Source: Nitrosopumilus sp.
GTDB taxonomy: Archaea; Thermoproteota; Nitrososphaeria; Nitrososphaerales; Nitrosopumilaceae
Assembly (NCBI GenBank): GCA_965204345.1
Contig: OZ241981.1
Span: 1,024,001 to 1,088,000 of the forward strand
Reading direction: 5' to 3'
Length of the DNA: 64,000 nucleotides
Part shown: piece after piece, positions 2,562 through 38,390 of the stretch
How the letters are laid out: the number at the start of each line of letters is the position of its first letter
Numbering within the stretch: the stretch's first letter is position 1
Program-made: the position numbers and the translations under genes
The notes under the pieces: model-generated
Database searches by the model: none
Told to the model about the DNA's origin: nothing
The model's input: the letters and a program-made list of their open reading frames with translations, nothing else

Positions 2562-2906
2562 ATGAAAAACCAATCACTACTTCTGCAGTACATGGGATAC
2601 ACTCCCAAACTCAGAATAATGGATTTCTTTTTGGATAACAAAGAGAGTGACTATTCTAAAAAAGAGATTATAGAGTATGTCGGTATTTCTAAAACAACAT
2701 TTTACAAGGTTTGGGATGAAATTTTAAAATTTGAATTTTTAAAAGCTACGAGAAAGTATGACAGGGCACAACTGTATGCACTAAATCCAGATAGTGTACT
2801 TGTTCAGAAATTCAAAGATCTGGATGATGAGCTTGGGAGACAAGCTATAGAAAAAGCAACAGCAAAAGAATCAATTTCTGCCAACCTATCAAAAACCATG
2901 AAATAA
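2562..2906 (+). CDS. winged-helix transcriptional regulator
   Basis: TPKLRIMDFFL...YSKKEIIEYVGISKTTFYKVW HTH; paralogue of 15276-15707 and 20060-20407. Confidence 0.8.
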   Translation: MKNQSLLLQYMGYTPKLRIMDFFLDNKESDYSKKEIIEYVGISKTTFYKVWDEILKFEFLKATRKYDRAQLYALNPDSVLVQKFKDLDDELGRQAIEKATAKESISANLSKTMK

Positions 2907-3167
2907 TTTCTCATTTTAGCATACGGAAAATATTTGAGTCTCTAAATTCCACATTCAATCTCATGTCTTTAGATCTTAAAAAAGAGAACAACACAAAAAT
3001 CAAAATGCTGTGACATCTTTTCAGGAATGCATGCAGAGCAGATCAAGATGTTCATTTAGATGAGACAATAACACTAAGAATGTAACAACCAGAATAGAAC
3101 ATCATAAAGATCCTAAATTGGAACGCTTCTAATCCAGATGAATTTTACATTAAGTTTTTGACTGTTA

Positions 3168-3199
3168 GGTACTGTTGCGTTCACGAGGGATAGGCACGA
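3168..3199 (+). repeat. left terminal inverted repeat GGTACTGTTGCGTTCACGAGGGATAGGCACGA
   Basis: exact reverse complement of 9395-9426; starts like IS6/IS26 ends (GGCACTGTTGC). Confidence 0.95.
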
Positions 3200-3247
3200 A
3201 TCTGTCTGGTAACACACGTTTTAATCAAGACCTGCAAACACACCAGC

Positions 3248-3520
3248 CTACAAGTACCTGGGATCGTTTCTCTGTTCCTTGGCTTCTTTTCTGCATCTAT
3301 CACAGAGCAATACTTTGAGATCATCTTCCACATACTCTTTGAGATCATCACGCTTTTCATCACAAAATTCACAACAGATAGTGTTTCTCTTTGTATTGCC
3401 TGTTCTTTTACATTGCTTGCGCATGTGAGTCAAAATGCCCATGAACAGCACCCTGTCTGCCTTTTGATTATCATCATCATCATAGTTCAAAAAACAGACT
3501 CTGCATCTAAAGCCCGACAT
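3248..3520 (-). CDS. small Cys-rich (zinc-binding) passenger protein
   Basis: several CxxC pairs; ATG at 3520 overlaps the transposase stop; near-identical copy at 37998-38267. Confidence 0.7.
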   Translation of the reverse strand: MSGFRCRVCFLNYDDDDNQKADRVLFMGILTHMRKQCKRTGNTKRNTICCEFCDEKRDDLKEYVEDDLKVLLCDRCRKEAKEQRNDPRYL

Positions 3521-4652
3521 TTCTACTCCTCTCCAAACTTGCATTTTGCATTAGTGTGAGCCACTTGTTATCACCTGATACGAAAATCATGGATTCTTCG
3601 GCAGGCGTTTTATTATTTATGCCACTGTGATTTTTGACAAAGTTATAGTATATTCTAAATTGCCTGAACATTGAACCGTCCTCTTTTTTCAGTCCACGTC
3701 TAACTGTCTCCCAATCCCTCATGGTTCCGTTAAGACGCTCCATCTTGTTATTGTTCATGTCTCTTGCTATGTGGGTATGACGAATGTGGGAAGTCAGTTT
3801 CATGTTTGGATTTCTTTGCCTCCATTCTGCCTTCCATGCATCATGGAAGTTTGGGGCTGAATCTGAGATCAAAGTATGAGGAATCATGCCTGCCTGCTTT
3901 TCTGACATCCTAAACATTGGTCTTATGTTTTCAGTATATTTCTTATCGGATATTTGCTGTGCAATCATGAATCTTGTTTCATCATCCATCATGGTATAGA
4001 CCCATTTTGGCATACCGCTAAACTTGACATGCAGTTCATCAGTTCTCCATCTGTTAGACACCCTTGGGGTTATGGCATTTGTGTATTCGGATATCATATC
4101 AGTATATTTGACCAGCCAGCGATATATCGTGGAATGATTTACAGTCTTGCCTTCTTGCCTGAAATTATCCTTTATGCTTCTAAATGACATCTTTGAACCA
4201 GACATATTCATTGAACGTGTAATGAGTGCAGGGTCATGCTTTATTCGCTCAACCCCCAGATTGTCACTGAATTTCTTTTTGCAACTCTTACAGTAATATT
4301 TTTGAACCGTTATCATTCTGCTCTTGTTATGGCGTGTTCCATCCTTGACAATGTTGCCTGAATCACAATGTCTGCACAACCTTACCTCATTTCTCTCCAT
4401 TATGCGATAGCCCATGGATTCATCAGCCCTGTTTTTCTTGATGTTTTCTAGTGCCACTTTGATGTGTTTGCAGTCTGCCTTTCTGTCTCTATGATCAGGG
4501 CACTCACACACCAGGCCCAGGCCCGTTCTTTTGACAACATATGATGAATTGTGATTGGTCTGGGATCTTACCTGATACACACCGTCTTTGATCACTTTGA
4601 AGGCATTTGGCAGGGACATGATCTCCTTTGCCCTTTTCTGACGTCTGTTCAC
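3507..4652 (-). CDS. tnp: IS6-like DDE transposase with N-terminal SWIM and zinc-ribbon domains
   Basis: CECPD...CKH (SWIM), CRHC...CKSC ribbon, WRTDE, ISDS, NNKMERLNGT DDE triad. Confidence 0.92.
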   Translation of the reverse strand: MNRRQKRAKEIMSLPNAFKVIKDGVYQVRSQTNHNSSYVVKRTGLGLVCECPDHRDRKADCKHIKVALENIKKNRADESMGYRIMERNEVRLCRHCDSGNIVKDGTRHNKSRMITVQKYYCKSCKKKFSDNLGVERIKHDPALITRSMNMSGSKMSFRSIKDNFRQEGKTVNHSTIYRWLVKYTDMISEYTNAITPRVSNRWRTDELHVKFSGMPKWVYTMMDDETRFMIAQQISDKKYTENIRPMFRMSEKQAGMIPHTLISDSAPNFHDAWKAEWRQRNPNMKLTSHIRHTHIARDMNNNKMERLNGTMRDWETVRRGLKKEDGSMFRQFRIYYNFVKNHSGINNKTPAEESMIFVSGDNKWLTLMQNASLERSRNVGL

Positions 4653-4653
4653 A

Positions 4654-4702
4654 TTTACTTAATAAGTAAAAGCACTATAAGAGTTTTACTTAATAGGTAA
4701 AA
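4654..4702. promoter_or_regulatory. two palindromic operator-like sites in the divergent tnp/cargo promoter
   Basis: TTTACTTA-A-TAAGTAAA (4654-4670, perfect) and TTTTACTTA-A-TAGGTAAAA (4684-4702, 1 mismatch), 31 bp apart. Confidence 0.7.
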
Positions 4703-4721
4703 TCTTATTAATGGTTGCAGT

Positions 4722-4889
4722 ATGATACAGGTATTGGCAACTTTTAATCTTGCAGGCTATATTTGTGACAAATGTGGACACCGATGGCCTCCCAGGTCCC
4801 TGGATAATCCAATGCCTAGGATCTGCCCAAGATGCAAGAATCCTAATTGGAATGACCAGGGAAAATCAGGCAAAAAGAAACATAAATGA
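4722..4889 (+). CDS. small zinc-finger protein (55 aa, absent from the ORF track)
   Basis: YICDKCGHRWPPRSLDNPMPRICPRCKNPNWN; homologue at 62727-62870. Confidence 0.8.
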   Translation: MIQVLATFNLAGYICDKCGHRWPPRSLDNPMPRICPRCKNPNWNDQGKSGKKKHK

Positions 4890-4961
4890 AATAAAGCAAG
4901 TACCAAAGTGGCCTCAAAGACTATGCACTCATCATCATCCACAATCAAGACAGATAAACAA

Positions 4962-7093
4962 ATGACAGATGATTATGCCAAATTTGATAAAAATCAACTA
5001 ATTGATAAGATCAAATCACGAGATAATGAAATCAAATCATTAGATAATAAAATCAAGAAACTCAAAAAGAGAAAAAAATACGGGTTGGTCTGGGATGAAG
5101 AAAAGACCGAGGAAAAATTTGATGAGCAACTCAAAAACAAACTGCCAATACTAAAGGAAGTCAAAAGTAACAGTATCTCTCTGAAAAAGGCCGGATTAAC
5201 CCAAGAATCGTCAATAGACGGGGGGGGGGTCGGCCAAAAAATACACCTTGTGACCCCACCAACATACTAATCGAAGGCGACAACTATCACGCGCTTTCAG
5301 TTTTGAATTATACGCATGAAGGTCAAATTGATGTGATCTACATTGATCCGCCGTACAATACTGGTGGAACACTCATGTATAACAATAATTATGTAGATCA
5401 GGATGATCCATACAGACATTCTAAATTTTTATCATTTTTACATAAGAGATTAAAACTAGCAAAAAATGTTTTAAAGAAAAATGGTGTGATTTGTTGTACT
5501 ATTGATGATTATGAATTGATATCTGTCTTAGGAATATTGGAAAAACTCCATGCAAAAATACTGAATATTGTTGTAATTGTGATAAAACCAGAAGGTCGTG
5601 GGCAAGACCATCATATTATGGGTTCTCATGAATATGCAATTTTTGCAACTTGGGGAGATCCAATTTCAAGAAAAATATTGCCTAGAGTTGAAATAAAACA
5701 AAATTATGATGAGGTATCCTCAGATGGCAGACAATATAGATGGGATACATTTTATCGCAGAGGAGACAAAAAGCCAAATCCGGAAAAGGAATCTAGATGG
5801 TATCCAATTTATGTTGATAGCAAAACTCTGAAAATATCTGCTAGTAAGAAAAAAGGTTACAAAAATGTATTTCCTATTGACACAAAAGGTACTAAATGGA
5901 TTTGGGATATGCTGCCTGAGGATTTTGAAGAAGAAATTAAAAATATGGATAGAAATGATCCAGAAATCATTGCAAAGAAAAATAAAAAAACAGATCAAAT
6001 AACAATTCATATTAGACGATACAAAAAATATTTTTCAAAGCCTGTATCATATTGGAAACATGAAGATTATTCTCCACAGGCATATGGCTCAAAACTTGTG
6101 CCTAGAATTATAGGTAAAGATATAAAATTTGATTATCCAAAAAGCGTTTTTGCAGTCTATGATTGTATAGATATTTTTTTACCTGAAAATGGAATATTGT
6201 TGGATTTTTTTGCAGGTTCTGGCACATCAGCACATGCAGTACAGTTACTTAATTTACGAGATATAGATATGGACAATACATTTGTTAGAAAATATGGCCA
6301 AAACTATCATACAAATACAAAATTCCTTGATCATGACGCAAAATTGTATTTGTCTAGTAATGCATTTGGTCGCAAGGAATTATCTCACGATGAACTATCA
6401 AAAAAATGGGCTTTATGGAGAAAAAATCATGGACAGAGGCAATTCATCATATGCACAAATAATGAAATTCCTGAAAAAATTCTTACTAAACTAAGGAAGC
6501 AAAAATCATGGACTAGAAAAAAAGAATTAAAACACCCAGAAGGAATATGTAAAAAAATAACATATCCAAGAATGATAGGCATTTCAAAAGGATACGGGTG
6601 GAACGAATCTCAAGCGAGAAAACTTGTCCATCCAATAAGCTCTCAAGGAGATATACTGCCATATGAAAAATCACTCACGGATAAAATTCCAAAAATCCCA
6701 TTTAGAATGAAATATTTCAAGACAGATTTCATAGAGTCTAAACGAACTGATTCAAACAGACGCAAAATAATGAAATGTATAACTGAGACATTATGCATAA
6801 AGGAAGATTGTTTCAAACTAATTCATAACCAATATCCAAAATATCATGTGTTTGCCAACAACTCACAGAGTAGATACCTGGGTATCTTATATGATAACAA
6901 AGGCGATACTATTTCTGAATTTACAAAATATGTGAAAAAAAACACCAGTCTCAAAAAAATATGCACATATGTAATGTCCTATTCTTCATACATAGACCCT
7001 GATGATTTTCAATCCATAAACAAACGTGTGGAATTACATCCAGTTCCAGACGCATTATTGGATGCATATATGAAACAACGTGGTAAGCTATGA
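4962..7093 (+). pseudogene. mod: type III R-M methyltransferase (Mod), split by a frameshift at a poly-G tract
   Basis: N-terminal KKYGLVWD; after the G tract the other frame reads PTNILIEGDNYHALSVLNYTH, then IDPPY and DFFAGSGT; G11 or G8 gives one ORF. Confidence 0.92.
5220..5229 (+). repeat. G10 homopolymer tract inside mod
   Basis: 10 consecutive G in an AT-rich gene where the reading frame changes. Confidence 0.95.
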
Positions 7094-9381
7094 TCCTGTT
7101 TGAACTAAAAGACTATCAAAAAAGAGCAGCAGAAGAATTGTTGAATGAAACATCCACTGTATTATCCAAGCCCAAAAATGATGTCAGGAAGTTTGTGTTA
7201 GAGTCACCAACAGGTTCGGGTAAAACAGTCATGATGGCAGCATACATGCGAGATCTTGTTGATAAATTCACCAATATTGCGTTTATTTGGTTTGCACCAC
7301 ATACTCTCCATATACAGAGTAAGGAAAGCCTTGAAGAAAAACTTGCAGATATTAGACAGATATCCTGTAGGTACTGGGATGATCTCAATGATAACATGCT
7401 GAATTCTGGAGATATTTTGTTCATAAATTGGGCCAACCTGAATAAAGACATCAATAGAATAATTCGAGAAAATGAACAGGGTAAAAACTTTGAAAATGTA
7501 ATGTCAAACACCCGTGAGAATGGTCGAAAAATTGTACTTGTTATAGATGAATCTCATTTTGGTGCAGGAACAAATATCGCAGAACAAATCTATGACACTA
7601 TAAAACCAAATATAATCATCAATGTCTCTGCGACACCAAAGACCATTGGTGTAGGAATTAAGCGTGTTTCGGTTGAACAGCAAGAAGTTGCAGATGAAGG
7701 AATGATAAAAAAAGACATACAATATAACATGGATCTAGATGATAAAAAACCTGAAAAATTTGGAATAAGTGATGTTATAGAAAAGGCACTAAACAAGCGA
7801 AAAGAATTAAAGGAAATATTTGAGCAATTAGACGATGTTGACTCATCCAAGATTAATCCTCTGGTATTAATTCAATCACCTACTAAATCTAATCTAATAA
7901 AGGAAGATTATGTGACAGAAATTACACGCATATTAAAAATAGATCATGGCATAACAACAGACAATCAAAGATTTGCAATATGGTTATCAGATAAGAAGAT
8001 CAACACTGATAAGGATTTATTAATAGATAATGACGGTCCTGTGGAAGTATTGTTGTTCAAACAAGCAATTGCATTGGGCTGGGATTGTCCACGAGCGCAA
8101 ATACTTGCATCATTTAGAGAATGGCACGATAAGACCACACTTCCCATACAAACATTGGGCAGAATAATGCGTATGCCTGAAAGAAAACATTATGAAAATG
8201 ATGAACTCAATAGAGCCTATGTGTATTCAAATGTTAATGATATTCAAAAGGAAAAACCTGCTTATAGTGAACGTTTTTTCACTAAGACGATAAAAAGAAA
8301 GAAACAATTTGAGACTGTAAACCTTGTTCTGCCTGCGCATTACAAGAAACCTGATCGTCATAAAGAAATACTTGATCAGAAAAAATATTACGAATATTTC
8401 ATAAATCAAATAGAAAAAAATGGCATTAAAGATATCATATCAAAAGGAGAAAGTAATCCCAGTAATCCTAAAAAGGAGGTAATCAAAGGCAAAATTGAAA
8501 AACTAGATCAGGGAAATATGAGCAACGCTGTGGGAATAGATGTTCTTGTAGATGATGAAGATATAACAAAGGAATTTGATTCTGAACTAGAAAAAATTGC
8601 TGTTAAATTTGATACGCACAGCGTAATTGCAAAAATAAAACAATCCCTATACCAATATGCACATGATATCGGTTATGATAAAAATGATGATTATGAAGAC
8701 AAGTTACAAAAAATATTATTGGATGATAAAAATAAGCCTACATTTCAAGCCACAATTCAGGAGTCGTTGGAGGATTACCTAGATGAACATAGTCAAGCAC
8801 AGGTGAATAAGCCGATATCATTTGATTGGAACTTCCCTTCAAAAATTAGAGTGACATTAGATAGTAAGGCCATTCCTGTAAGTTTAGATAAATATTTGAT
8901 GGAAAAATTGGAAGAATCAAGTAAACCTCCCAGTACAGAGATTGGATTCATGAATTATCTGAACAACCAATGTTCAGGTGTAAAATGGTGGTACAAGAAT
9001 GGTAGTGCAAATTCTAGGGAAAATTTTGCTGTAAAATATACTGAACCACTAGAGGATGATTCAAAAGGTGTCAAAGAAAATTGTTTCTATGTGGACTTTA
9101 TAGTCTGTTGTAAAGACGGTTCAATTGGACTCTTTGATACCAAGGGTGGAATACACATCGAAGTGGGTAATACAAAACACAAATCTGACGGTCTTCAAAA
9201 ATACATACAAGAGATGAATAAATCATACAAAGATAATGATCTGTTATCTGGTGGTAAAAGAGTTAGATTTTGGGGCGGCATTGTTAAAAAAGAGGGCGAA
9301 ATATGGAAGTACAATCCTAGTAAAAAATATCATTACGAAAAGGGCTGGGAATCATTGCTGATATGTGAAAAACCAAGTTAA
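7090..9381 (+). CDS. res: type III restriction enzyme Res subunit
   Basis: SPTGSGKT, DESH, QTLGRIMR helicase motifs; C-terminal FYVDF...FDTKG nuclease; ATGA overlap with mod. Confidence 0.92.
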   Translation: MILFELKDYQKRAAEELLNETSTVLSKPKNDVRKFVLESPTGSGKTVMMAAYMRDLVDKFTNIAFIWFAPHTLHIQSKESLEEKLADIRQISCRYWDDLNDNMLNSGDILFINWANLNKDINRIIRENEQGKNFENVMSNTRENGRKIVLVIDESHFGAGTNIAEQIYDTIKPNIIINVSATPKTIGVGIKRVSVEQQEVADEGMIKKDIQYNMDLDDKKPEKFGISDVIEKALNKRKELKEIFEQLDDVDSSKINPLVLIQSPTKSNLIKEDYVTEITRILKIDHGITTDNQRFAIWLSDKKINTDKDLLIDNDGPVEVLLFKQAIALGWDCPRAQILASFREWHDKTTLPIQTLGRIMRMPERKHYENDELNRAYVYSNVNDIQKEKPAYSERFFTKTIKRKKQFETVNLVLPAHYKKPDRHKEILDQKKYYEYFINQIEKNGIKDIISKGESNPSNPKKEVIKGKIEKLDQGNMSNAVGIDVLVDDEDITKEFDSELEKIAVKFDTHSVIAKIKQSLYQYAHDIGYDKNDDYEDKLQKILLDDKNKPTFQATIQESLEDYLDEHSQAQVNKPISFDWNFPSKIRVTLDSKAIPVSLDKYLMEKLEESSKPPSTEIGFMNYLNNQCSGVKWWYKNGSANSRENFAVKYTEPLEDDSKGVKENCFYVDFIVCCKDGSIGLFDTKGGIHIEVGNTKHKSDGLQKYIQEMNKSYKDNDLLSGGKRVRFWGGIVKKEGEIWKYNPSKKYHYEKGWESLLICEKPS

Positions 9382-9394
9382 CCTGATTTAGCTC

Positions 9395-9426
9395 TCGTGC
9401 CTATCCCTCGTGAACGCAACAGTACC
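9395..9426 (-). repeat. right terminal inverted repeat
   Basis: reverse complement of 3168-3199; followed by TSD GACTGTTA. Confidence 0.95.
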
Positions 9427-9457
9427 GACTGTTAAGATAGGCACGTAAAGTATCAAG

Positions 9458-9750: not shown

Positions 9751-11415
9751 ATGAATTTGCCTGAACCCATGAATAAGCAATTTTCAAGCTTGATGGATGA
9801 TGTGTCTTCGGGCAGATTAAAAATACCACAGTTTCAGCGGGATTTTGTTTGGGACATAAAAAAATCAGCAAGTTTGTTAGACAGTATCATAAAAGGATAT
9901 CCGGTTGGAACTTTTATTTTCTGGAAGACAAGAGAACGACTTCGATCTGTAAAAGACATAGGGAATTTGAATTTGCCTGAACCTGAGAAAGGGGATTATG
10001 TGAATTTTGTACTTGATGGCCAACAAAGAATAACAAGTCTATTTGCAGCACTAAAAGGTGAAACCATCAGACGAAGCAATGGAAAGGAGGAAGATTTTTC
10101 AAAAATCTTCATCGATCTAGAAGCCAAAGAAGATGAGAAGATCATAACAACAGAAATACACAATAAAAATGAGGGGCAAATAATCAAGTTAGAAACTCTT
10201 CTGTATGGAGGCCTGACAGTATTGTCAGATTATGATTCCAGATATCATCAAAGGTTAGACGAATACAAAAAGAGAATACAGTCATACAACTATTCAGTTA
10301 TTCAAGTAAATAATGTGCCTATTGATGTAGCTACAGAGATTTTTACGAGGATAAACGTAGGAGGTAGACCCCTTTCATTATTTGAGATAATGGTAGCCAA
10401 GACCTATGATTATGATAAGAATTTTGATTTATCAGAGAAATTCGATGCCATGATAGAAAAGCTAGATGATGTAAATTATGAAACGTTATCAGATGCAACC
10501 ATACTGCAGGTCATTTCTCTCATACTAACAAAGGAATGTAAGCGTAAAGTCATTTTATCACTAAAAAAAGAGGACATAATTGAAATCTGGGAGGAGGTCA
10601 TGGATGCTATAGAAAGAACAGTAGATTATTTTAGAAATTATTACCGAATTCCTGTTTCTAATTTGTTACCCTATAACGCTCTGATAGTGCCTTTTGCTTA
10701 TTTCTTCTACAACCATAAAGACAAACCAATAGGAAATATGCAGAAATATCTAGAAGACTTTTTCTGGAGAATTTCATTATCTGGCAGATATTCTTCTGCT
10801 GTAGAAAGCAAGCTTGCCCAAGACACAAAGCGAATTGATAAAATTCTAAATGCAGAATTGCCTGAATATGATTGGGCAATAGATAGATCTGCAGAATACA
10901 TCAAACATAATGGATGGTTCAGTGCCGGAAGAAGCTACATCAAAGCGATTCTTTGCATTTATACATATTATCAACCCAAGTCTTTTGTTGACAATTCTCT
11001 TGTTAACATAAACAATGATTGGCTCAAACAAGCAAATAGCAAAAATTATCATCATTTTTTCCCAAAAGCATATTTAAAGAAATTAAATGAAAGTGAAGAA
11101 AAGATCAACCACATTTTGAACATTACTATTGTGGACGACTTTCTAAATAAGAGAAAAATCAAGCAGAATCCTCCTTCAACATATATGGAGGATTTCAGAA
11201 AAAACAATCCTCAGCTTTCTGAAACTATGAAGACACATCTAATAGACGACTTGGATAATTTTGGAATATGGATAAATGATTATCAAAGGTTCATAGACAA
11301 ACGAGCAAGAAGAATATCCGAAGAAATTGAAAAAAGAATCATCAGGCAGGAGATCGATAAACAGCCTCAACCAGAATTGTTGGAAGATTATTCAGAAGTA
11401 ATAGAAATAGAATGA
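9751..11415 (+). CDS. DUF262 (GmrSD-like) nuclease with C-terminal HNH-like domain
   Basis: IPQFQRDFVW, LDGQQRITSL, IFTRIN and NYHHFFPK motifs. Confidence 0.88.
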   Translation: MNLPEPMNKQFSSLMDDVSSGRLKIPQFQRDFVWDIKKSASLLDSIIKGYPVGTFIFWKTRERLRSVKDIGNLNLPEPEKGDYVNFVLDGQQRITSLFAALKGETIRRSNGKEEDFSKIFIDLEAKEDEKIITTEIHNKNEGQIIKLETLLYGGLTVLSDYDSRYHQRLDEYKKRIQSYNYSVIQVNNVPIDVATEIFTRINVGGRPLSLFEIMVAKTYDYDKNFDLSEKFDAMIEKLDDVNYETLSDATILQVISLILTKECKRKVILSLKKEDIIEIWEEVMDAIERTVDYFRNYYRIPVSNLLPYNALIVPFAYFFYNHKDKPIGNMQKYLEDFFWRISLSGRYSSAVESKLAQDTKRIDKILNAELPEYDWAIDRSAEYIKHNGWFSAGRSYIKAILCIYTYYQPKSFVDNSLVNINNDWLKQANSKNYHHFFPKAYLKKLNESEEKINHILNITIVDDFLNKRKIKQNPPSTYMEDFRKNNPQLSETMKTHLIDDLDNFGIWINDYQRFIDKRARRISEEIEKRIIRQEIDKQPQPELLEDYSEVIEIE

Positions 11416-36981: not shown

Positions 36982-37364
36982 ATTTTTAAAGATATATGAT
37001 TTGTTGGGCTCTTAGGGTATACACAGAAAGATGGAGTATTATTAGCATATTTGGAACATGTCCAATCAAGGCTCCTTTTTGAGCTGTATTTACCATATAT
37101 CCATTGTCTCAAAATATGTCACAATTTCACAAATAACTTACAGGTATTTTTTGTTAGATTTGATATAATATTTCATAAGCCATTTTAGGAAATGAATTTC
37201 ATCGTTGTTGTTTAAGTGAGATTTTTCGATTCTGTTGCGTTCATGAGGGATAGACACTAGAGCTAAATTTGGTTTAGCCTGGTTTTTCACATATCAGTAA
37301 TGATTCCCGGCAGTAATAGATTTACACAATCTTAAACATTAACGTACCCTTTCTTTGTTCCAGT

Positions 37365-38011
37365 AAGGCAAGACTGTAAATCATTCTACGATATATCGCT
37401 GGCTGGTCAAATATACTGATATGATATCCAAACACACAGACGCCATAACCCCAATGGTGTCTAACAGATGGAGAACTGATGAACTGCATGCCAAGTTTAG
37501 CGGTATGCTAAAATGGGTCTATACCATGATGGATGATGAAACAAGATTCATGATTGCACAGCAAATATCCGATAAGAAATATACTGAAAACATAAGACCA
37601 ATATTTAGGATGTCAGAAAGGCAGGCAGGCATGATTCCTCATACTTTGATCTCAGATTCAGCCCCAAACTTCCATGATGCATGGAAGGCAGAATGGAGGC
37701 AAAGAAATTCAGACAGAAAATTGACTTCCCATGTTCGTCATACCCACATAGCAAGAGACATGAACAATAACAAGATGGAGCGTCTTAACGGAACCATGAG
37801 GGATTGGGAGACGGTTAGACGTGGACTGAAAAAAGAGGACGGTTCAATGTTCAGGCAATTTAGAATATACTATAACTTTATCAAAAATCACAGTGGCATA
37901 AATGGCAAGATGTCTGCTGAAGAATCCCTGATTTTCGTATCCGGTAATAACAAGCAGCTCACACTAATGCAAAACGCAAGTTTGGAGAGGAGTAGAAATG
38001 TCGGGCTTTAG
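37365..38011 (+). pseudogene. 5'-truncated IS6-like transposase
   Basis: near-identical to the C-terminal half of 3507-4652; lacks SWIM/zinc-ribbon part. Confidence 0.9.
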
Positions 38012-38267
38012 ATGCAGAGTCTGTTTTTTGAACTATGATGATGATGATCAAAAGGCAGATAGTGTGCTGTTCATGGGCATTTTGACTCACATGTGCAAGG
38101 AATGTAAAAGAACAGGCAATACAAAGAGAAACACCATCTGCTGTGAATTTTGTGATGAAAAGCGTGATGATCTCAAAGAGTATGTGGAAGATGATCTCAA
38201 AATATTGCTCTGTGATAGATGCAGAAAAGAAGCCGAGGAACAGAGAAACGATCCCAGGTACTTGTAA
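37998..38267 (+). CDS. Cys-rich passenger protein (copy of 3248-3520)
   Basis: near-identical translation. Confidence 0.7.
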   Translation: MSGFRCRVCFLNYDDDDQKADSVLFMGILTHMCKECKRTGNTKRNTICCEFCDEKRDDLKEYVEDDLKILLCDRCRKEAEEQRNDPRYL

Positions 38268-38390
38268 GCTGGTGTGTTTGCAGGTCTTGATTAAAACTTG
38301 TTCTACCAGACAGATTCGCGCCTATACCTCATGAACGCAACAGAACCTGCAATACCGAACCTTTAAAAAATAGTAATTGATAGTGTTATT

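Follow-up and report, generated by a model that had tools for sequence, protein, structure and literature searches.

A cargo-bearing unit transposon with an IS6-like transposase and a type III restriction-modification operon in a sponge-associated Nitrosopumilus

Architecture of the element

The stretch of DNA considered here (the window) comprises 64,000 nucleotides of the genome of a sponge-associated, ammonia-oxidising Nitrosopumilus (GenBank assembly GCA_965204345.1, contig OZ241981.1, positions 1,024,001 to 1,088,000 of the forward strand). At positions 3168-9426, it contains a segment of 6,259 bp, measured between the outer edges of its two ends, which, in all probability, is an autonomous unit transposon of recent insertion that employs a zinc-finger-extended relative of the IS6 transposases to mobilise the segment together with a type III restriction-modification (R-M) operon. 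The segment is bounded by terminal inverted repeats of 32 bp, the left one on the plus strand (3168-3199; GG tip and CTGTT motif) and the right one on the minus strand (9395-9426), which are identical at 32 of 32 positions; a search of the window with the 32-bp end, allowing up to 3 mismatches, returned just these two matches, with none expected from 100 shuffles. Immediately outside, the whole unit is flanked by an exact 8-bp direct repeat, GACTGTTA, at 3160-3167 and 9427-9434, which is identified as a target-site duplication by comparison of the repeats and by contigs that lack the unit and keep one copy of the repeat (see below). There are one transposase gene and two end sequences inside 3168-9426, and neither an internal end nor a second transposase gene was found within these limits.

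The left end of the segment appears to be a transposition module, consisting of a Cys-rich open reading frame (ORF), the transposase gene (tnp) and a divergent zinc-ribbon gene, with the mod-res operon occupying the rest up to the right end. The transposase gene (3507-4652, minus strand) encodes a full-length protein of 381 aa, in which profile searches and alignment distinguish a SWIM-like CxC..CxH module, a zinc ribbon, an HTH (helix-turn-helix) and a DDE domain. The protein matches Pfam DDE_Tnp_IS240 (PF13610) with 34.2 bits at a cut-off of 27, and its best NCBIfam family is transpos_IS6 (NF033587; E 2.5e-22), with residues 135-340 aligned to positions 2-202 of the 202 of the profile; the zinc ribbon is matched by transposase zinc-ribbon models of NCBIfam at residues 93-130. 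In an alignment of 20 relatives, the SWIM-like C49, C51, C61 and H63, the ribbon residues C93, C96, C121 and C124, and D205, D264 and E305, along with R312, are all invariant, and the transposase of one relative also matches Pfam SWIM. A tblastn search of 72,556 plasmids yielded 2,551 records, mostly of Staphylococcus, Enterococcus and Lactococcus, at 23-27% identity; among the 12 plasmid matches listed, 8 are annotated as IS6 family transposases and 2 as IS3 family, the other 2 being unannotated there. Judging from these matches, the kinship of the transposase to IS6 appears to be real but distant.

The zinc-ribbon gene (4722-4889, plus strand) encodes a 55-aa protein with a CxxC..CxxC pattern. 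Its homologues, as found with tblastn at loci L107, L146, L139, L073 (twice), L136, L133, L097, L135 (Nitrosotalea devanaterra) and L145, and as two more copies in this genome (L011/L012), sit about 100-130 bp upstream of the transposase gene and are divergent from it, an arrangement that points to a conserved partner of the transposase within the transposition module rather than to cargo. The intergenic region between the two genes holds two copies of an 18-bp palindromic motif, detected by repeat search (4654-4701), which is a candidate operator. At its other side, the 3' end of tnp is overlapped by the Cys-rich ORF (3248-3544, minus strand; 98 aa, four CxxC pairs), which is 94% identical in a deleted sister copy described below and which the nearest relative (L054) has with 49% identity and a conserved Cys pattern; among the relatives examined, it was not found beyond these two, and it would seem to be specific to this sub-clade. 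Neither of the two small zinc proteins has a family in PADLOC or NCBIfam, and Pfam gave no family for the Cys-rich ORF and sub-threshold zinc-ribbon matches only.

The operon starts with mod (4908-7093, plus strand; PADLOC MTase_III), which is split into an N-terminal ORF (4908-5270) and a body that ends at 7093; the frame of the body is open from about 5171, with the first start codon at 5303. The site of the frameshift is a homopolymer of ten G (G10; 5220-5229, plus strand). Upon reading through with one frame step in the run (GGGG=G), a Mod protein of 727 aa without a stop is obtained, the E-value against PADLOC MTase_III changes from 1.3e-42 for the body to 2e-49, and the match to PDLC03642, which covers residues 33-289 across the break, increases from 125.2 to 156.3 bits. 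The Mod proteins of relatives start with MIEGDNYH, and the same motif is present in the window in another frame, just 3' of G10. The possibility that 4908-5270 is a separate gene was considered and rejected, as the position of the MIEGDNYH motif and the read-through profile match across the break identify this ORF as the N-terminus of Mod. The motifs DPPY and FAGSGT are present in the read-through translation; solved relatives of Mod in the PDB include Mbo45V (7dsu) and the EcoP15I Mod (4zcf).

The second gene of the operon, res (7090-9381, plus strand; 763 aa), is intact; a 4-nt overlap (7090-7093) joins its start to the mod stop, and its own stop at 9381 is separated from the right end of the transposon by 13 bp. 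The protein matches Pfam ResIII (E 2.2e-21) and PADLOC REase_III (E 4.8e-18). In a 5-sequence alignment with four homologues, PTGSGKT, DESH and a C-terminal VDF...FDTKG are conserved; in our reading of this alignment, VDF..FDTKG would represent the PD-(D/E)xK nuclease motif, and the names of the helicase motifs are assigned likewise. Adjacent, co-directional and overlapping mod and res genes, the motifs of beta-class N6-adenine methylases and the profile matches are all as in type III systems, except that only res has an intact frame, mod requiring a frame change in G10. Close relatives of Res (E<=1e-10) were detected in 11 of 151 genomes of the genus, the best non-self match being 38% identical, and no identical cargo was found elsewhere. 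Type III Res depends on Mod. With mod out of frame, the system is therefore probably off for both methylation and restriction as assembled, or at least is without a normal Mod; this off state could be a reversible, phase-variable one or the result of a plain inactivating mutation.

The first of these two options draws attention to homopolymers in the rest of the genome. There are just eight runs of G or C of at least 10 nt in the 2.12-Mb genome (G+C content of the main contig, 38.7%), and two of the eight split genes of N6_N4 DNA methylases, namely mod and a second gene at C1:722756-722765 (L169). Other G/C runs, of 9-11 nt, adjoin the starts of the genes for a subtilase, an Ig-domain protein, an ABC permease and TFIIB, and yet another one adjoins the start of a gene for an 822-aa protein without a known family. 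In mod, the run occupies codons 105-107, and one extra G would restore the frame, as in a phase-variable repeat situated within a reading frame. This pattern recalls the contingency loci of bacteria. Phase-variable mod genes ("phasevarions") are found in Haemophilus, Neisseria and Helicobacter, and the mod gene of the window resembles them in having a homopolymer run in its 5' part. It is possible, then, that the runs at gene starts and in methylase genes are contingency loci, or that they are homopolymer assembly errors, which would look identical. From the public sequencing run X11, a contig that spans 4101-5346 matches the window without a difference, G10 included, contigs being unable to show minority lengths; no indel is listed at G10 in the run contigs (contigs, not raw reads), and a contig from run X1 ends near the homopolymer. 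Reversible switching of mod at G10 is a possibility that we take seriously without favouring it.

These findings bear out the greater part of a first-pass annotation of this DNA, which had proposed perfect 32-bp inverted repeats and an intact 8-bp duplication around 6,259 bp, a single transposase of SWIM/zinc-ribbon/DDE type, and a res gene ending 13 bp before the right repeat. The order and content of the genes are as that annotation described them, except that it had missed the break in mod; what it called a whole type III R-M system is indeed a mod-res pair with an intact res, the mod gene of which is frameshifted at G10. Likewise, the divergent zinc-finger gene that it listed is present, and should be counted, by its conservation next to tnp in many loci, as a probable transposase partner and not as cargo.

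The empty site and other copies in the genome

A first indication that the segment arrived as one unit comes from public sequencing data, searched as Logan contigs. In four out of four runs (X11, X1, X2 and X3, from four studies), contigs join position 3159 directly to 9427. This joint skips 6,267 bases, and eight letters at the joint fit either side, corresponding to one copy of the duplication; thus, an exact empty site exists beside the occupied form. Long empty-site contigs are available from X1 (2,413 nt) and X3 (1,488 nt), with a shorter side of 216 nt each. Depths in X11 are 174-184 for the flank contigs, 46 for the empty-site contig and 125.8 for the cargo contig; for X1, they are 155 for the flank and the empty site and about 12 for the cargo. 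The samples with the empty form date from 2010 to 2024. The insertion is recent and still polymorphic in natural populations, which agrees with the first-pass annotation: it had proposed a recent insertion on the basis of the perfect ends and had listed the lack of an empty allele among the findings that would refute its reading. Empty and occupied forms are now seen to coexist.

An attempt to find the empty site by synteny in 40 relatives, using a 10-kb query, never retrieved both flanks together; all that it matched was, in 4 genomes, the HTH gene of one flank (82-84%) and, in 2 genomes, the GmrSD gene of the other. Two further joints in the run contigs, 5365->8144 and 8205->9321, were discarded as too weak, with a depth of 4 in X11 and, in X1, a shorter side of 18 letters and the entry "between: not known". 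In X1, a sponge metagenome of 2019, the res region 7604-8575 is present at a depth of about 11-12 with 39 differences per 978 nt, 3-nt insertions behind 7652 and 7890, and a 1-nt insertion at 7892 close to a deletion at 7899, which suggests that another population has the same cargo as a diverged allele.

Other copies in the same genome complement this picture. An internally deleted sister copy of 1,120 bp, without a matching duplication, lies 34 kb from the transposon (37228-38347, minus strand). What remains in it are both ends, the Cys-rich ORF, residues 165-381 of tnp (90% aa identity, 1 TAA stop) and some 13 codons from the 3' end of res; its nucleotide identity is 95% to positions 1-986 of the element and 87.5% to positions 6177-6255, which include the 3' codons of res. 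Since the Res homologues of other genomes, located away from such ends, finish with the same W-K/E-S/P-L motif, the latter stretch is native res and not end sequence. Accordingly, with res already beside its end in the sister copy, the R-M-bearing unit has occupied two or more sites.

Altogether, the genome holds 19 end sequences of this sub-family, distributed over four miniature inverted-repeat transposable elements (MITEs), seven solo ends and two larger copies. The MITEs (C1:187524-187844, 1436992-1437312, 1711379-1711699 and 2016454-2016771) are 318-321 bp long and have both ends and no genes. One of them (C1:1436992-1437312) shares the rare GGTACTG tip of the transposon and is flanked by a perfect 8-bp duplication, GTACAAAG, and another one has a duplication matching at 6 of 8 positions; a MITE with this tip variant and an intact duplication suggests a recent supply of transposase in trans. 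The other copies have 2-6 differences over the 32 positions of their ends, and both ends of the transposon carry a rare A at position 4, where most of the other copies have T. Four of the six paired copies in the genome have no matching duplications, which, together with the seven solo ends, fits intramolecular replicative events or recombination between copies. Ends of this sub-family (up to 3 mismatches) occur in 3 of the 151 genomes of the genus, namely 19 sites in this genome (G000) and two each in G055 and G140, so that the sub-family is nearly private to this genome.

The point of insertion itself has some peculiarities. It follows the stop of the HTH gene at a distance of 254 bp and is 24 bp past that of a 77-aa minus-strand ORF, where there is no obvious promoter. 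A 10-mer, GATAGGCACG, is found in the right flank at 9436-9445, 2 bp past the duplication; of its 6 occurrences in the 2.12-Mb genome, the other 5 are inside end sequences. In addition, the duplication GACTGTTA itself includes the ACTGTT of the end tip. Hence the target site looks like the element's own end, which could mean that insertion took place in a relic end or that the element has a preference for end-like targets.

As to the neighbouring genes, the left one (2562-2906, plus strand), a small HTH_7-like gene, is 82-84% identical at the nucleotide level in G021, G017, G014 and G009 and is the sole flanking gene conserved in other species of the genus, synteny being lost beyond it, as expected for a variable island. 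The right neighbour (9751-11415, plus strand) encodes a protein with a GmrSD_N domain (Pfam E 5.2e-32; PADLOC PDC-M55C / HEC-05), which places the transposon within a defence-gene neighbourhood.

Related elements and known systems

Of 151 Nitrosopumilus genomes, 55 have relatives of the transposase (E<=1e-40), frequently as multiple copies, and the nearest one apart from the transposase itself is 63% identical. To delimit the elements around them, inverted repeats were sought in 33 loci of 4 kb each and in 20 longer ones of 20 kb, with some places covered by both sets, by a seed-and-extend search, as the ends have diverged so far that the 20-mer of the window mostly failed. In this first sample, 22 elements of 1.7-6.9 kb were delimited, and an exact 8-bp duplication flanks 16 of these. 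Nine of the 22 enclose a DNA methylase, alone or accompanied by genes for a restriction endonuclease or a specificity (S) subunit, a proportion that is descriptive and not a rate, the sample having been picked by transposase similarity and findable ends.

The cargo of these nine elements is varied. It consists of a methylase with an S subunit in L054 and L069, a type IIG enzyme with S in L059, a methylase with a PADLOC REase_II in L058, a BglII-type endonuclease with a methylase (type II) in L067, and methylase-HNH fusions in L064; in L055 and L057, an N6_N4 methylase is adjacent to an ORF without a family match, of 428 and 369 aa, respectively. A different type III mod-res system is carried by L062. 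The latter relative (L062:7796-14688, genome G141) is 6,893 bp long and has a perfect duplication, CTATTATA, and inverted ends of 466 bp that include the 5' part of a methylase gene, such that one full and one partial mod are found in inverted orientation, with res (767 aa) and the transposase lying in the middle. The type III system of L062 is distinct from that of the window.

In addition, a collection of species representatives contains at least 462 related transposase loci. A second sample of 79 loci was taken from Nitrosopumilaceae, Nitrosotalea, Nitrososphaerales, Bathyarchaeia, Methanoregula and Methanocellaceae, and delimitation was strict, requiring a G tip, at least 16 matched bases and an exact 8-bp duplication. 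Under these rules, 23 of the 79 loci were delimited, with lengths of 1,983-6,348 bp, two of them repeating places of the first sample. Apart from R-M genes (see below), their cargo includes GmrSD-type genes (L164, L165), a MazF-type gene (L125) and a SocA-type gene (L090); the other cargo ORFs are, for the most part, without a Pfam match. Even the smallest element of this strict set, of 1,983 bp, is longer than a tnp gene with its ends. Passenger DNA is the norm in this family, and the cargo is diverse. The first-pass annotation spoke of a unit transposon family in ammonia-oxidising archaea; bounded, cargo-bearing relatives are indeed found (22 in the first sample, 9 of these with methylase or R-M genes), so that the lack of such homologues, which it had likewise named among the findings that would undo its proposal, does not apply, and its taxonomic frame has to be widened to Bathyarchaeia, Methanoregula and Methanocellaceae.

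Two side observations concern individual relatives. The duplications of L044, L051 and L048 (genomes G091, G163 and G104) are TTAAAAAG, TTAAAAAG and TTAAAAAT, respectively, and it may be that one sub-clade prefers targets of TATA-box-like sequence. At L073 (G021, C1:1774000-1793900), three transposase genes of the family, two of them with the divergent zinc-ribbon gene, are found within 8 kb and may form a cluster or nest of elements.

How does this family compare with the systems that are already described? IS6 elements are 0.7-1.8 kb insertion sequences (IS) with one gene and with inverted repeats that show a GG tip and cTGTt and caaa motifs, and they move cargo only as pseudo-compound transposons made of two copies (PMC7986276). 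With IS6 members such as IS26, IS257 and IS240, the element of the window shares a DDE transposase whose best families are IS240/IS6, ends with a GG tip and CTGTT (GGTACTGTTGCG...), and the 8-bp target-site duplication (GACTGTTA here; exact in 16 relatives of the genus set and 23 of the wider set). The N-terminal zinc-finger extension of its transposase is reminiscent of the IS6 clades h and i, of 340-350 and 450 aa, which are mainly clostridial (Varani et al. 2021, PMC7986276). In contrast to IS6, its ends have GCGTT where the caaa motif is expected and are 32 bp long versus 15-20 bp; its transposase has an extra SWIM-like module and is 23-27% identical to canonical IS6 transposases, with a score below the NCBIfam cut-off; and it is not a compact tnp-only element of about 0.7-1.8 kb but spans 6.3 kb with 5-6 genes and a single transposase, the cargo being located inside one pair of ends and not between two direct IS copies. 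Its archaeal host group, moreover, is absent from the passages on the tree in PMC7986276. The single IS6 member with a passenger gene is ISDsp3, which encodes one hypothetical protein (PMC7986276). Like this "transporter IS" (tIS), the present element is of IS type and keeps its passengers between its own ends; unlike it, it belongs to a whole family with 1-5 kb of cargo, often complete R-M systems.

From the side of the cargo, a close parallel is the set of transposon-like R-M units of bacteria, with their inverted repeats and 8-bp target duplication, analysed by Furuta, Abe & Kobayashi 2010 (PMC2853133), where the R-M genes are similarly bounded and the empty site was similarly used for comparison. 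Those units, however, show no clear transposase, except for one likely inactivated transposase-like gene, and no archaeal case survived the selection (PMC2853133), whereas the element of the window has an intact transposase, a defined family and an archaeal host. Compared to the type III systems EcoP15I and Mbo45V, the cargo is alike in the order of mod and an overlapping res, in the DPPY and FxGxG motifs and the central variable region of Mod, and in the helicase and PD-(D/E)xK motifs of Res; it is unlike them in its archaeal host, in being borne by a transposon and in the length of Res (763 aa versus 883-898 positions of the PADLOC profiles).

For archaea, Krupovic et al. 2019 (PMC6563490) describe IS-like transposons of the same phylum, the thaumarchaeal ones typically with "1 or 2 genes", mention IS6 four times in the text and list passenger-carrying DNA transposons as a class undetected in archaea. 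A 2026 survey of archaeal IS (PMC13343696) does not use "passenger" or "restriction-modification" at all and has "cargo" twice, once in a title of the reference list. Our search of the literature by terms returned, in the texts as far as available, no description of archaeal IS6-type unit transposons with R-M cargo. On this basis, the cargo-carrying family of IS6 relatives is apparently undescribed.

Origin of the insertion and its possible significance

The following mechanism can be envisaged. The transposase would recognise both 32-bp ends, move the 6,259-bp segment and generate the 8-bp target duplication. By analogy with IS6 (PMC7986276), transposition would probably be replicative, via a cointegrate that is then resolved by host recombination, a route that would carry along any DNA between the ends; the kinship to IS6 being distant, movement could also be of the cut-and-paste kind.

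Several observations weigh against this interpretation and have to be faced. The NCBIfam IS6 score of the transposase, 79.6 bits, is under the curated cut-off of 125, and the identity to canonical IS6 transposases is just 23-27%; hence the wording "IS6-like" of the first-pass annotation is apt, and the IS6 mechanism cannot simply be assumed. The frameshift in mod implies that the cargo may be dead. In the second sample, methylase or R-M genes are present in 3 of the 23 strictly delimited elements (L118, of the MmeI type, L129 and L165), which makes R-M cargo a common trait in Nitrosopumilus but no universal one in the family. A second intact 6.3-kb unit was not found in this genome or in the 150 others of the genus, where Res homologues are at most 38% identical, and movement of the exact unit therefore rests on the empty site and the decayed sister copy. 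A scan of JGI metagenome contigs with an exact 30-mer over the res-to-end junction and with a degenerate 26-mer of the end gave 0 hits each; such a scan finds exact matches in one collection only and is no evidence of absence. Finally, Logan contigs have a single depth figure each and drop rare variants, making the allele proportions rough, and X10-X13 are perhaps the source of the assembly itself and then not independent of it, X1, X2 and X3 being from other studies.

Given these reservations, other histories need to be weighed. The frameshift in mod, the presence of only one full copy and the abundance of MITEs, solo ends and deleted copies could be taken to mean that the element is a defective relic, a passive island with a dead transposase or dead ends and an R-M pseudogene pair. 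We consider this unlikely: the transposase is full length and retains all residues invariant in the family, the ends are perfect, the MITE with the same tip variant and an intact duplication suggests a recent supply of transposase in trans, and res and the remaining mod are open over 763 and 727 codons. Alternatively, the element could be old and fixed, with the empty form arising by precise loss, through recombination between the 8-bp repeats or excision by the transposase; in that case, the polymorphism would carry no information on a recent insertion. Contigs, indeed, cannot separate gain from loss, and the 5-12% divergence of the sister copy indicates a presence of some duration of the lineage in this genome. 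However, 8-bp repeats at a distance of 6.3 kb rarely give rise to a deletion; the ends are perfect, whereas those of other copies differ at 2-6 of 32 positions, and the empty form, recorded from 2010 to 2024 in four studies and, in X1, far above the cargo in depth, better fits an ancestral allele, which makes precise loss quite unlikely.

It could also be argued that the unit was assembled stepwise in place, an IS of about 1.8 kb having come first and mod-res having entered later or having been captured with a stray end, so that the 6.3-kb segment as such never moved. Stray ends are available from the scattered solo ends and MITEs, and the lack of a second intact 6.3-kb unit is compatible with this history. 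Yet the two ends are identical at all 32 positions and share the rare A at position 4 that most copies replace by T; the exact duplication surrounds the whole unit; the empty contigs lack everything at once, with no intermediate joint reported in the four runs; the sister copy elsewhere already has res abutting its end; and cargo within one pair of ends is the rule among the relatives. Stepwise assembly thus appears highly improbable. Taken together, the data support the earlier interpretation of the segment as a cargo-bearing unit transposon, and its recent movement as a single unit is the reading in which we place strong confidence.

A more far-reaching, and rather doubtful, hypothesis would be that this family of archaeal IS6 derivatives is a "defence shuttle" that normally carries R-M, defence or addiction modules and that, in the present case, has been coupled to a homopolymer switch in mod. 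If so, an R-M system could arrive or persist in the off state and then flip on, the epigenetic and defence states of the ammonia-oxidising archaeon would be phase-variable and borne by a transposon, which the R-M module would stabilise in turn through post-segregational killing. The G10 run in mod, together with the second split methylase gene, makes phase-variable methylation in archaea directly testable.

What this particular copy adds is an empty site at the population level, the MITEs, the sister copy and the frameshift in mod. Together with the dozens of bounded relatives and the at least 462 transposase loci, the empty site reveals widespread archaeal relatives of IS6 that act as unit transposons and, in Nitrosopumilus, often ferry complete R-M systems. 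In such elements, the patchy distribution of R-M systems and defence islands among ammonia-oxidising archaea has a concrete vehicle; as natural, compact, single-protein gene shuttles of archaea, they are also candidates for a genetic tool.

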